A program made the position numbers and the translations under genes. Positions 9,628 through 10,911 of a stretch of DNA of 17,868 bases are shown here, in pieces. A model generated the notes under the pieces. That model ran no database searches, was not told the origin of the DNA, and saw nothing but the letters and a program-made list of their open reading frames with translations. The stretch covers positions 1 through 17,868 of the IMG/VR virus record IMGVR_UViG_2698536484_000013; one strand, written 5' to 3'. Positions within the stretch are counted from its first letter, which is position 1. Every line of letters begins with the position of its first letter. The stretch comes from a virus (lineage: Duplodnaviria > Heunggongvirae > Uroviricota > Caudoviricetes).

Positions 9628-9783
9628 GTGTCATCCAAGGTTAATTATGAGTCGCTGGCATCGGTCATGCCGCGTAATGAACAGGAAACAGATGCTGTAG
9701 TGGACCCTGTAATCGCTGAAATGAATGCTCGCCTGGAGGCTGAATTTGCAGCTGAGAATGAACATACCACCCAGGGCGACTAG
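9628..9783 (+). CDS. Small acidic hypothetical protein (51 aa from GTG)
   Basis: GTG 9628 with GGGAGA SD 6-7 nt upstream; the ORF track's first start codon is 9595. Coding status uncertain; overlaps the start of the next gene. Confidence 0.35.
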   Translation: MSSKVNYESLASVMPRNEQETDAVVDPVIAEMNARLEAEFAAENEHTTQGD

Positions 9784-10387
9784 GACTGTTTTTTGTGTCG
9801 GTAGCGGTCCGTCACTCACTCGTGAGGACTGTGCTGCTATAGAAAAAACTGGCTGTTCAATCATCGCGGTTAACAATTCCTGGCAGATGTTCGATGACAT
9901 TTATGCCTTATACGCCGGTGATTTGTCATGGTGGAAGCAATACGGTTCCACCATACCGGGAGGGAGGTTCCGCAAAGTGACAGCCAACCTGGCGGCGGCG
10001 AAATCATTTTCGTTGGAGTACAGGCGATATTGTGGACCGGCGGAAGGGGTAAATAGCGGCGCGCAGGCTATCAGTCTGGCTGCTGAATCAGGGGCTGAAG
10101 TAGTGGTATTAGTCGGCTATGACTGTTCTCTGCAAAACGGCCTTCATTGGCATGGCGCGCACCCTCAAGCACTACGGAATCCAACGCAGGTGTCTATTTC
10201 AAAATGGCAACAGCAGTTCCTGGATACCCGCAAAAAACACGCAGATTTACATATTTTGAATGCAAGTAGGAGCAGTGCAATTCAATGTTTCCCAAGAATA
10301 AATTTAGAGGCAGTGATCGCGTTATTATCGTCGGCAGTGGCCCAAGCGCCGCAAACTTTGTTGCGCCGCGCGGAGTGCCGATTATAG
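9758..10387 (+). CDS. Rossmann-type GSGPS-motif protein, paralogue A (sialyltransferase GT42 / DUF115 Maf-MptE-like fold suspected)
   Basis: Motifs VGSGPSL, IIAVNN, NSGAQAISLAAESGAEVVVLVGYD, HWHG in the same order and spacing as the GNGPSL / CN / TSG...GID / His motifs recalled for Campylobacter CstII-type enzymes. Start is ATG 9758 or ATG 9725; the 3' end overlaps paralogue B by 103 nt in another frame. Confidence 0.65.
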   Translation: MNIPPRATRTVFCVGSGPSLTREDCAAIEKTGCSIIAVNNSWQMFDDIYALYAGDLSWWKQYGSTIPGGRFRKVTANLAAAKSFSLEYRRYCGPAEGVNSGAQAISLAAESGAEVVVLVGYDCSLQNGLHWHGAHPQALRNPTQVSISKWQQQFLDTRKKHADLHILNASRSSAIQCFPRINLEAVIALLSSAVAQAPQTLLRRAECRL

Positions 10388-10911
10388 CGGTCAATGGGGC
10401 CATCGACTGGCTTAACCGCGCTTCTTATTTTTTCACCCTTGATCCATCCCCAGACAATATGCGGCGCGTTGGTCGTGGCCGCCGTCGCCGTGGTGTTTGT
10501 TATTGCATGGCACTACCCGATGTTAAAGAACGTGAAGTCAGAGATGGCGTTCTGTGCTTCCGTCGTGTGGCTGAACGCGGCATGGAGCCAAAAAATACGA
10601 ATTCTCCCGAGTGGTGGGCGTGGCGCTGGTCCGCACATTTCGGCCTTTGCGAAGATGAGAATGAAATTGCCAGCGGCAATAGTGCATATGGTGCTCTGAA
10701 CCTGGCTTTCCATATCGGATTCAAACATGTAGCTCTGGTGGGCGTTGACGCTACGCAAGAACTACGCGTTCACTCCGGCGGCACGCCAAAAAATCTAAGT
10801 CACCTGCCTTTGTTATTCCAGTCTGCGCGTGAACAGATTGACGTTGTTTCATGCGGGAAAATGGGAGGTATTCCGCAGATGACTCTTAAAGAATGGCTGA
10901 AGAATACATGA
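10285..10911 (+). CDS. Rossmann-type GSGPS-motif protein, paralogue B (tandem duplicate of the upstream gene)
   Basis: 208 aa; [44 protein letters not shown] in the same order as paralogue A; stop overlaps the start of the phosphatase gene (ATGA). Confidence 0.75.

Follow-up and report, generated by a model that had tools for sequence, protein, structure and literature searches.

The DNA analysed here (the window, 17,868 nt of viral sequence) contains two same-strand genes that share positions 10285-10387, i.e. 103 nt, in different frames, and the question arises whether such a long overlap is real and whether both frames are constrained within it. A reading made from the letters alone (the sequence-only reading) had described the pair as tandem paralogues, the upstream one continuing for 34 codons past the downstream ATG, and had considered a genuine long overlap, a recent duplication still resolving or a frameshift-prone junction. 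The geometry proved to be exact: counted from the A of the downstream ATG, the upstream gene reads on through 34 sense codons and then stops at TAG 10385-10387, and the downstream frame is -1 relative to the upstream one. As to its nature, it is very likely that the locus represents a genuine, conserved, co-directional out-of-frame overlap of two ancient paralogous glycosyltransferase-like genes, the core of which is constrained by both proteins and the tail by the downstream protein only.

The window stems from a P1-like phage-plasmid; over 9500-11700 it shares 99.5% identity with P1 and 97.1% with P7. The upstream ORF is pmgO and the downstream one pmgP of bacteriophage P1 (GenBank AF234172, NC_005856), named hdmB and hdmC in P7 (AF503408). 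The P1 records contain the same 103-nt overlap (pmgO 79592-80254, pmgP 80152-80778) and P7 is annotated likewise. The overlap as such is thus already known, since it was annotated in the P1 genome (2004) and in P7, and what is new here is its division into core and tail and its comparison across phages. For both genes the P1 and P7 records give only the labels 'putative morphogenetic function' or 'head morphogenesis', and neither a discussion of the overlap nor a function for either protein was found in the searchable literature.

In phage P1, pmgN, pmgO, pmgP, ppp and pmgQ form one operon under the control of the C1 repressor (Table 1), and overlaps also occur at its other junctions. The start of pmgO overlaps pmgN by 59 nt if ATG 9725 is used, which gives a PmgO of 220 aa as in the P1 annotation, or by 26 nt if ATG 9758 is used, the choice of the sequence-only reading, which gives 209 aa. 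The end of pmgP overlaps ppp by 19 nt, and ppp and pmgQ share a 4-nt ATGA. In all 14 non-P1 loci, which were selected by pmgP, pmgQ adjoins pmgP.

Table 1. Features of the pmgN-pmgQ region (positions in the window)
Feature	Position	Strand	Basis or remark
pmgN, small upstream gene	9628..9783	+	P1 annotation 79495-79650; ORF 9595..9783
pmgO (P7 hdmB), upstream paralogue	9725..10387	+	ORF; P1 annotation; PHROG 4603, E 3.7e-74
Shine-Dalgarno-like AGGAG for pmgP	10268..10272	+	within pmgO codons Ser-Arg-Ser; relatives: GGAG/AGGAG upstream of ATG
pmgP (P7 hdmC), downstream paralogue, 208 aa	10285..10911	+	ORF; P1 annotation; PHROG 2111, E 2.7e-132
Apparent dual-coding core of overlap	10285..10330	+	zero polymorphism; damped third-position divergence in both frames
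A_AAT_TTA, X_XXY_YYZ heptamer in pmgO frame	10300..10306	+	present in P1 and P7 only
VGSGPS motif of PmgP (residues 16-21)	10330..10347	+	translation; inside overlap
Apparent pmgO read-on tail (residues 192-209) and TAG 10385-10387	10331..10387	+	site-class divergence as in pmgP-only sequence
ppp, lambda NinI-like Ser/Thr phosphatase	10893..11585	+	Metallophos, E 8.7e-16; P1 annotation
pmgQ, glycosyltransferase-like	11582..12283	+	PHROG 1962 'glycosyltransferase', E 2.5e-128; P1 annotation

A pairwise BLASTP comparison of PmgO and PmgP yields just 14/36 identities (E 0.004), and the profile-profile alignment (hhalign) joins them over 163 columns with 96% probability (E 4.6e-9) at 15% identity. 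The AF2 models have pLDDT values of 86.8 (PmgO) and 93.1 (PmgP, with residues 1-10 at 57). In Foldseek searches, the PmgO model matched Maf (5mu5, E 1.4e-4, TMq 0.60) and CstII (1ro8, E 4e-4, TMq 0.55), and the PmgP model gave modest matches to the MptE HPPK (8sd5, E 2.3e-3, TMq 0.43) and to CstII/CstI (TMq up to 0.49). Both proteins score below the gathering cut-off of Pfam PF01973 (MptE-like; 23.1 bits for PmgO and 20.9 bits for PmgP, cut-off 34.6), and some homologues carry a precomputed match to this family. The fold search alone was informative, as searches of PDB sequences with the PmgO and PmgP profiles and the single PmgQ sequence gave nothing significant. In NCBIfam and PADLOC no match was obtained for PmgN, PmgO, PmgP and PmgQ; PmgM had none in NCBIfam and Ppp none in PADLOC. 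In the alignments A1-A3 there is a resemblance at motif level only (GSGPS, NSG/GNSA and GYD/GVD). The VGSGPS of PmgP resembles the GxGPS motif near the N-terminus of CstII-type sialyltransferases.

Judging by the profiles and the predicted models, PmgO and PmgP are ancient paralogues with an MptE/Maf/CstII-like fold, and the proposed tandem paralogy is real in this older sense. That the pair instead stems from a recent tandem duplication still resolving, or is one gene split by a frameshift or sequencing error, might be thought from the presence of VGSGPS in both ORFs (PmgO's own copy lies at 9797-9814) and from their similar size of ~208 aa. However, the two profiles are just 15% identical, and the proteins belong to different PHROG families. 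Each of them forms a complete domain that is modelled with confidence, dozens of independent genomes have an identical junction, and PmgO homologues commonly occur without a PmgP partner. We therefore reject this explanation, to which we assign next to no probability.

An overlap with this frame offset is kept by all P1-like relatives that were examined, the most distant having ~50% identity, and by several unrelated phages. The divergent lineages number ~15, and their overlaps measure 4-157 nt. It measures 103 nt in P1 and P7, 70 nt in relatives from Cronobacter, Klebsiella and Salmonella, 49 nt in Pantoea alvi and in a metagenome locus (L165), and 49, 67, 109, 133 and 157 nt in further P1-like relatives. 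Among phages other than P1, it amounts to 94 nt in Citrobacter phiNP and to 100, 100, 40, 13 and 4 nt in other viral contigs. In the more distant relatives it shrinks to 4-13 nt; one of them (L179) has a 4-nt GTGA junction, where the upstream stop and the downstream start are only a few nucleotides apart. With one exception, the lengths are congruent to 1 modulo 3, and among the overlapping junctions examined only one does not have pmgP in the -1 frame. A scan of viral contigs with the PmgO alignment gave only near-identical P1 copies, which were used for polymorphism and not for divergence; in the 59 P1-like haplotypes the junction is undisrupted and free of indels. These haplotypes, the P1-like elements of Klebsiella, Salmonella, Cronobacter and Pantoea, and non-P1 phages such as phiNP support the genuine long overlap among the three original possibilities. 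An earlier stop of the upstream paralogue in related genomes, or a single fused ORF, had been named as evidence to the contrary. Earlier stops do exist (overlaps of 40-70 nt), but so do later ones (109-157 nt), and no fused ORF was found among the 240 best homologues listed. Since pmgO stops both earlier and later in relatives, dual constraint does not extend to the last 57 nt of the overlap in P1, to which the part under VGSGPS belongs.

The reality of the overlap depends on the start of pmgP. ATG 10285 is the sole canonical start upstream of the conserved GSGPS of PmgP, and further upstream the pmgP frame has a stop, TAG 10267-10269, being open from 10270. This ATG results from the Gln/Lys-Cys codons (cAATGt) of a conserved C-terminal motif of PmgO, and in every P1-like relative compared it sits in the (Q/K)-C-(F/Y) codons of pmgO. 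From the same ATG, PmgP has 208 aa in nine P1-like relatives, and most other homologues have 200-209 aa. One might nevertheless suspect that the true start lies downstream, for instance at GTG 10375, so that the overlap would be 13 nt and the long overlap a longest-ORF artefact. Such a suspicion has a basis in the finding that nearly all co-directional overlaps of at least 60 nt in prokaryotic annotations are mispredicted, mostly through 5' extensions of the downstream gene (Pallejà et al., PMC2478687), and pmgP is indeed called as 178-186 aa in many database entries. However, with a downstream start PmgP would lose strand beta1 as well as GSGPS, which is common to all family members and nearly invariant in the alignments A2 and A3 (in A3, G19, P20 and neighbouring residues of PmgP are invariant or nearly so), and a clean codon-position signature of the pmgP frame is visible from +48 on. 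Moreover, ATG 10285 is kept in every relative with a long overlap, several of which have a stop in the pmgP frame just 6 nt upstream. A mis-annotated start is hence extremely improbable.

The overlap looks composite, with a core of 46-49 nt constrained by both proteins and a distal tail constrained by pmgP alone. The core encodes residues ~176-191 of PmgO, a conserved C-terminal strand and the start of a helix, together with residues 1-16 of PmgP, a flexible leader (disordered in the model) and strand beta1. The C-terminal motif of PmgO in this core is kept in stand-alone homologues too. A conserved element of PmgO (15 residues) is thereby encoded in the initial ~46 nt of the overlap, and the last 18 residues of PmgO are lineage-specific and absent or different in orthologues. 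Among the 59 haplotypes, the 103-nt overlap has five variable sites, as against 66 and 73 in the flanks of 527 and 524 nt, respectively (~13%); none at all falls in 10285-10340. Divergence in the three site classes, of which the first comprises the third codon positions of pmgO and the last those of pmgP, is 0.27/0.22/0.42 in the core, 0.19/0.23/0.64 in the tail, 0.17/0.11/0.61 in pmgP-only and 0.63/0.41/0.25 in pmgO-only sequence. Wobble divergence is therefore damped in the core in both frames, from 0.63 to 0.27 for pmgO and from 0.61 to 0.42 for pmgP. The low divergence of the core could in part also reflect constraint on the pmgP frame alone, combined with constraints on the ribosome-binding site or the mRNA.

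The tail lies over residues 16-35 of PmgP, including GSGPS, and in contrast to the sequence-only reading, which assumed constraint on both frames at VGSGPS, the site-class divergence indicates that only the pmgP frame is constrained there. The last 18 residues of PmgO look like unselected read-on, with a stop that is set by the codon choice of pmgP. It would be conceivable that the whole 103 nt are under dual selection and that the PmgO tail is functional, for example as a helix for docking of PmgO to PmgP, as tails are found in most relatives and the AF2 model shows the tail prolonging the C-terminal helix 183-207. However, the confidence of the model is low in the tail (pLDDT of 75, then 62), which varies from 0 to 36 residues, relatives' stops ranging from the tail start to 36 codons further on, and its sequence is conserved no further than the pmgP frame imposes. 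Its most variable site class is the second codon position of pmgO (0.64), three of the five polymorphisms of the overlap are synonymous in pmgP and change Ala to Val in PmgO, and two natural relatives (L165, L169) lack the tail entirely. The tail length also matches chance expectation: when the codons of pmgP were shuffled synonymously, keeping the protein and the first 16 codons, the median overlap was 121 nt and 84% of the shuffles gave at least 103 nt. A functional tail is consequently quite unlikely. While the length of the overlap is not beyond chance, its conservation with the same offset in many independent genomes is.

The composite overlap probably arose from a short GTGA-type overlap of 4 nt, as still present in some distant relatives; such an origin predicts the lengths congruent to 1 modulo 3 that were found at all junctions but one. 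The pmgP start would then have moved upstream to a ready-made ATG, and the pmgO stop would have been repeatedly lost and regained. Among the relatives, the position of this stop drifts with whichever pmgP codons create one.

Concerning expression, the pmgO stop of P1 (10385-10387) lies 100 nt past the pmgP start (10285). This distance is too far for classical termination-reinitiation, so that 'coupling' of the two genes can only be inferred, and translation of pmgP must depend on an internal ribosome-binding site of its own. The AGGAG is located 12 nt before the ATG, which is a long spacing in P1, and the region around the start has less structure than shuffled sequences do (z +1.18). An occluded ribosome-binding site that is opened by translation of pmgO was also considered and rejected, as this z-score gives no evidence of structure-based coupling. 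We suppose that translation of pmgP starts de novo at the internal site on a polycistronic mRNA, and ribosomes on pmgO would cross this site, so that both proteins would be co-expressed from one message.

The -1 frame of pmgP at all but one of the overlapping junctions could also point to a programmed frameshift, in which ribosomes on pmgO slip at A_AAT_TTA and produce a PmgO-PmgP fusion of ~390 aa with two MptE-like domains. Heptamers of the canonical pattern exist in P1 and P7, A_AAA_AAT is found at the equivalent place in four relatives of ~50% identity, and the fusion is geometrically possible given the open pmgP frame from 10270. These heptamers are, however, by-products of the Lys-Phe, Lys-Lys and Phe-Pro codons of PmgP, and of the 15 overlapping loci that were scanned, L161, L162, L171, L176 and L248 have no heptamer at all. 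RNA folding of 10300-10400 revealed no stable structure after the heptamer (z -0.59 versus shuffles), pmgP retains its own conserved ATG and Shine-Dalgarno sequence, and no fused two-domain protein occurs among the best 240 homologues listed. The notion of a frameshift-prone junction thus finds no support, and programmed slippage appears highly improbable.

A further idea is that selection has kept the long overlap as a device for expression, so that it would not be a frozen accident: with its ribosome-binding site inside the last structured element of pmgO, pmgP may be subject to cis-coupled synthesis at a fixed ratio, as for a heteromeric glycosyltransferase of the two paralogues, or the site may allow a low level of -1 fusion. 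We regard this as rather doubtful; if true, the pair would join a small number of bona fide co-directional overlaps that exceed 60 nt and are shared by unrelated temperate phages.

PmgO, PmgP and PmgQ probably act together as a glycosyl-transfer module, which is not needed for forming plaques under laboratory conditions. Both pmgO and pmgP have been scored as non-essential, with a knockout study cited for the same call (PMC10695390), and among single-gene knockouts of P1, 24 of 29 had no plaquing defect, the five named essential genes not including pmgO and pmgP (PMC9024508). The main text of the latter study does not mention PmgO or PmgP. The functional label would change, as pmgO-pmgP-pmgQ looks like a portable glycosyltransferase-like module of several temperate phage types and not like a 'morphogenetic' set.

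The value of the case is a practical one for annotation, as it documents an exception to the rule that treats co-directional overlaps above 60 nt as mispredictions (PMC2478687). The start of pmgP is secured by a conserved motif, and much of the overlap length appears to be neutral read-on of pmgO. The arrangement also explains the shortened database entries that automatic pipelines often produce, i.e. PmgP proteins of 178-186 aa that have lost GSGPS, PmgO proteins of 166 aa and records in which pmgO is not called at all. It does not alter the understanding of phage gene expression, for which it is an ordinary and well-behaved case.

Among known systems, a close parallel is holD/rimI of Enterobacteria, a conserved co-directional overlap of 32-56 nt with a lineage-specific length (Pallejà et al. 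2008, PMC2478687). Like this pair, pmgO/pmgP is a real same-strand out-of-frame overlap, the presence of which is conserved while the exact length depends on the lineage. It differs in being longer (40-157 nt), in belonging to phages instead of cellular genomes and in joining two paralogues, and it exceeds the limit of that survey, in which no real co-directional overlap was above 60 nt. With the coupled 4-nt ATGA/GTGA overlaps of operons, such as GTGA in L179 and ATGA at ppp/pmgQ, it shares the frame relation and a length congruent to 1 modulo 3, but in P1 the pmgO stop 100 nt beyond the pmgP start makes termination-reinitiation unlikely. The programmed -1 sites of dnaX (A_AAA_AAG) and of tail-assembly chaperones (lambda G/GT) resemble the P1 locus in the -1 position of the downstream frame and in an X_XXY_YYZ heptamer, whereas the unconserved heptamer, the missing stimulatory structure, the separate start of pmgP and the lack of a fused homologue set it apart from dnaX and lambda G/GT. 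At the protein level, the CstII/CstI sialyltransferases, the Maf flagellin glycosyltransferases and archaeal MptE (PF01973) give the best structural matches of both models, and PmgO and PmgP also have sub-threshold PF01973 scores and an N-terminal GSGPS. However, at ~208 aa both proteins are far smaller than Maf (632 aa), and with 10-15% identity to the CstII/CstI, Maf and MptE structures, their likeness to these enzymes lies at the level of fold and motif.

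The source of the DNA is a P1-like phage-plasmid. Positions 9500-11700 are 99.5% identical to bacteriophage P1 and 97.1% identical to P7, and similar DNA is found in 687 of 5426 complete E. coli genomes, nearly always plasmid-borne, as well as in 585 plasmids of PLSDB. The P1 record (AF234172) maps pmgL-pmgM, a C1 operator, pmgN-pmgO-pmgP-ppp-pmgQ and C1 operators ahead of pmgR, and the P7 record has the same genes under the names hdmA-hdmD. The P1 C1 operator consensus matched the window four times (0.06 expected by chance), corresponding to the annotated O26, OpmgRa/b and OpmgT, while the annotated Oppp operator ahead of pmgN (~9568-9584) gave no consensus match at up to three mismatches. 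Within the operon pmgN-pmgO-pmgP-ppp-pmgQ (9595-12283) all junctions overlap in the ORF listing, by 26 or 59 nt (pmgN/pmgO), 103 nt (pmgO/pmgP), 19 nt (pmgP/ppp) and 4 nt (ppp/pmgQ). The pmgN/pmgO overlap also occurs, with variable length (17-41 nt), in the relative loci L162, L163 and L165.

Genes and operator matches in the window
Feature	Position	Strand	Source
pmgO ORF	9725..10387	+	ORF listing
pmgP ORF	10285..10911	+	ORF listing
C1 operator consensus match	8661-8677		consensus search
C1 operator consensus match	12285-12301		consensus search
C1 operator consensus match	12334-12350		consensus search
C1 operator consensus match	14426-14442		consensus search

The sequence-only reading had described a 103-nt out-of-frame overlap that takes in the VGSGPS motif of the downstream protein, and the ORF listing and the P1 and P7 annotations agree with it. 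Both genes share 10285-10387, pmgP lies in the -1 frame relative to pmgO, and past the A of the pmgP ATG there are 34 pmgO sense codons before the TAG at 10385-10387; VGSGPS is encoded at 10330-10347. The arrangement is annotated identically in P1 (pmgO 79592-80254, pmgP 80152-80778) and P7. The overlap is correctly described and already on record: GenBank has carried it from the time the P1 genome was annotated. Its type is familiar, and the genes concerned are accessory. Directly after its stop, the pmgO frame is open for 101-103 further codons within pmgP (ORF 10394..10699, + strand, 101 aa). This is unusually long compared with the adjacent runs of 5-27 codons, but probably a by-product of composition.

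Divergent loci were gathered from the protein database, from genome and viral contigs and from phage records, and the genes were placed by tblastn and ORF tracing. The same offset is kept in P1-like relatives and in several unrelated phages, but the length varies from 40 to 157 nt and is 4-13 nt in more distant loci; all lengths but one are congruent to 1 modulo 3. Earlier pmgO stops, which had been named as evidence against the overlap, do occur (for instance at 49 and 70 nt), whereas a fused two-domain PmgO-PmgP protein, named likewise, is absent among the 240 homologues listed. In every P1-like relative compared, down to approximately 50% (PmgO) and 58% (PmgP) identity, PmgP has 208 aa, and the pmgP ATG sits in the pmgO codons for (Gln/Lys)-Cys-(Phe/Tyr), as cAATGt or aAATGt. 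In a few loci the genes are separated or arranged differently, as pmgP-pmgQ-pmgO or pmgO-pmgQ-pmgP.

Length of the pmgO/pmgP overlap in P1, P7 and relative loci
Source	Overlap (nt)
P1, P7	103
Cronobacter phage JK004; Klebsiella and Salmonella elements	70
Pantoea alvi (L005), L165	49
L169	49
L168	67
L167	109
L170	157
Microbulbifer MAG (L033)	133
Citrobacter phage phiNP (not P1-like)	94
L176, L178	100
L248	40
L183 (more distant)	13; 43 with upstream ATG
L179 (more distant, GTGA)	4
L174 (more distant, other offset)	11

In database entries (clusters P0122, P0123, P0003; loci L164, L161, L171), gene callers often sidestep the overlap by cutting PmgP to 178-186 aa, with loss of GSGPS, or PmgO to 166 aa, and the JK004 and phiNP records leave pmgO unannotated despite an intact ORF. 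The product name "norphogenetic protein" goes back to a misspelling in P1 AF234172, where the note on pmgM (window 8983-9561) reads "putative norphogenetic function", and has spread to the NCBI and UniRef names of hundreds of PmgO, PmgP and PmgM homologues from many genera. Some P1-like copies carry single-base indels in A or T homopolymer runs within pmgO or pmgP, and others have IS26 or IS1 insertions inside the pair (L155 and L160, at the equivalents of 9842, 10428 and 10788; H89 and H107). Either the sequencing is at fault here or dispensable genes are decaying.

The claim that both frames are constrained appears to hold for only part of the overlap, the core (10285-10330), and not for the tail (10331-10387, the last 18 PmgO residues and the TAG), where the VGSGPS stretch lies. 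We calculated mean pairwise nucleotide divergence for nine divergent junctions anchored on the pmgP ATG, by pmgP positions 1, 2 and 3 (pmgO positions 3, 1 and 2). The flanks show normal pmgO codon signature upstream (0.63/0.41/0.25) and normal pmgP signature downstream (0.17/0.11/0.61). In the core (+3..+47) the wobble classes of both frames are damped (0.27/0.22/0.42), and the tail zone (+48..+102; 0.19/0.23/0.64) is indistinguishable from pmgP-only sequence, its most variable sites being pmgO second codon positions. Across 59 P1-like haplotypes, 66 of 527 nt and 73 of 524 nt are variable in the two flanks, compared with five of 103 nt in the overlap. These five all fall within 10341-10387, leaving 10285-10340 invariant; three of them change Ala to Val in pmgO and are synonymous in pmgP. 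In an alignment taking in many stand-alone homologues without pmgP, the conserved PmgO domain comes to an end beyond which length and sequence diverge. The PmgO model has a C-terminal helix (183-207), with confidence dropping over the tail, first to 75 and then to 62; in the PmgP model residues 1-10 are of low confidence (pLDDT 57), and residue 12 is the first of strand beta1.

The position of the pmgO stop depends on pmgP codon choice. Relatives encoding PmgP Val-Ala as GTA-GCC thereby give pmgO a TAG stop where P1 has codon 192, whereas P1 itself uses GTC-GGC (Val-Gly) and reads on to a TAG made by Ile-Ile-Ala (ATT-ATA-GCG); in the 70-nt group pmgO ends at a TGA made by the Ala-Leu/Met-Asn codons. 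Synonymous-codon shuffles of pmgP gave overlaps with a median length of 121 nt, 84% of them being 103 nt or longer; therefore, the P1 overlap length needs no selective explanation.

From the pmgP-frame stop (10267-10269) to the GSGPS motif, ATG 10285 is the sole ATG, GTG or TTG, and in several relatives the frame opens just two codons ahead of it. AGGAG (10268-10272; GGAG in relatives) precedes the ATG, and the 121 nt around it fold less than shuffled controls do (z +1.18). PmgP would thus be initiated independently, at an internal ribosome-binding site on the polycistronic mRNA; classical termination-reinitiation across 100 nt is unlikely. The frameshift-prone junction considered in the sequence-only reading, i.e. 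programmed -1 frameshifting from pmgO into the pmgP frame, is highly improbable. P1 does have A_AAT_TTA at 10300-10306 in the pmgO frame, with pmgP in the -1 frame, but such heptamers result automatically from Lys-Phe, Lys-Lys or Phe-Pro in the PmgP leader, 5 of 15 overlapping loci scanned have none, folding of the 100 nt downstream is not unusual (z -0.59), and the 240 homologues listed include no fusion.

PmgO and PmgP are indeed paralogues, but ancient ones within one superfamily, because their direct matches are weak (BLASTP: 14/36 identities, around the motif only, E 0.004), each weakly matches the other's PHROG family, and both stay below the Pfam MptE-like threshold of 34.6 bits (23.1 and 20.9 bits), while profiles from 21 PmgO and 16 PmgP homologues match with 96% probability (E 4.6e-9, 163 columns, 15% identity). 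The confident AlphaFold models (pLDDT 86.8 and 93.1) have as best solved neighbours the Maf glycosyltransferase 5mu5 and the sialyltransferase CstII for PmgO, and the archaeal MptE kinase 8sd5 and CstII/CstI for PmgP. A recent duplication still resolving, also considered earlier, is excluded by this low identity.

Loci selected for pmgP always contain a pmgQ homologue and nearly always pmgO; pmgO homologues often occur alone, in bacterial genomes mostly alone or with pmgQ only. In phiNP (L171, 2906-4690) pmgO-pmgP-pmgQ has the lysis genes on one side and the small terminase subunit on the other, and such a compact module without ppp is present in non-P1 temperate phages (L171, L172-L184, L248). 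PmgQ matches a "glycosyltransferase" PHROG and weakly resembles the alpha-galactosyltransferase 6mw5 (E 0.086). Most likely, the three proteins form a putative three-enzyme glycosyl-transfer module. By CRISPRi, pmgO, pmgP, ppp and pmgQ are non-essential for P1 plaque formation, and a knockout study is cited for the same call (PMC10695390). In the knockout study plaquing was unimpaired for 24 of 29 single-gene knockouts, the five genes named as essential include neither pmgO nor pmgP, and the main text, including its virion proteome account, does not mention PmgO or PmgP (PMC9024508). For pmgN (9628-9783), the table in PMC10695390 gives essential by CRISPRi (EOP 1.4e-2) versus non-essential in the cited knockout study.

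In distant relatives the overlap is 4-13 nt and PmgP starts 2-5 residues ahead of beta1. In the enterobacterial and related clade, pmgP may have gained an 11-residue leader via an ATG already present in the conserved Lys/Gln-Cys codons of pmgO, whose stop would have drifted since. This proposed origin fits the general model that explains unidirectional overlaps by start or stop codons being lost and replaced (PMC3887535). [quoted passage not shown] By their criteria the P1 case splits: the pmgP 5' end is genuine and the pmgO 3' end is partly a lineage-specific extension. Thus, the genuine long overlap that had been one of the options is real, with approximately 46-49 functional nt lengthened to 103 by neutral read-on.
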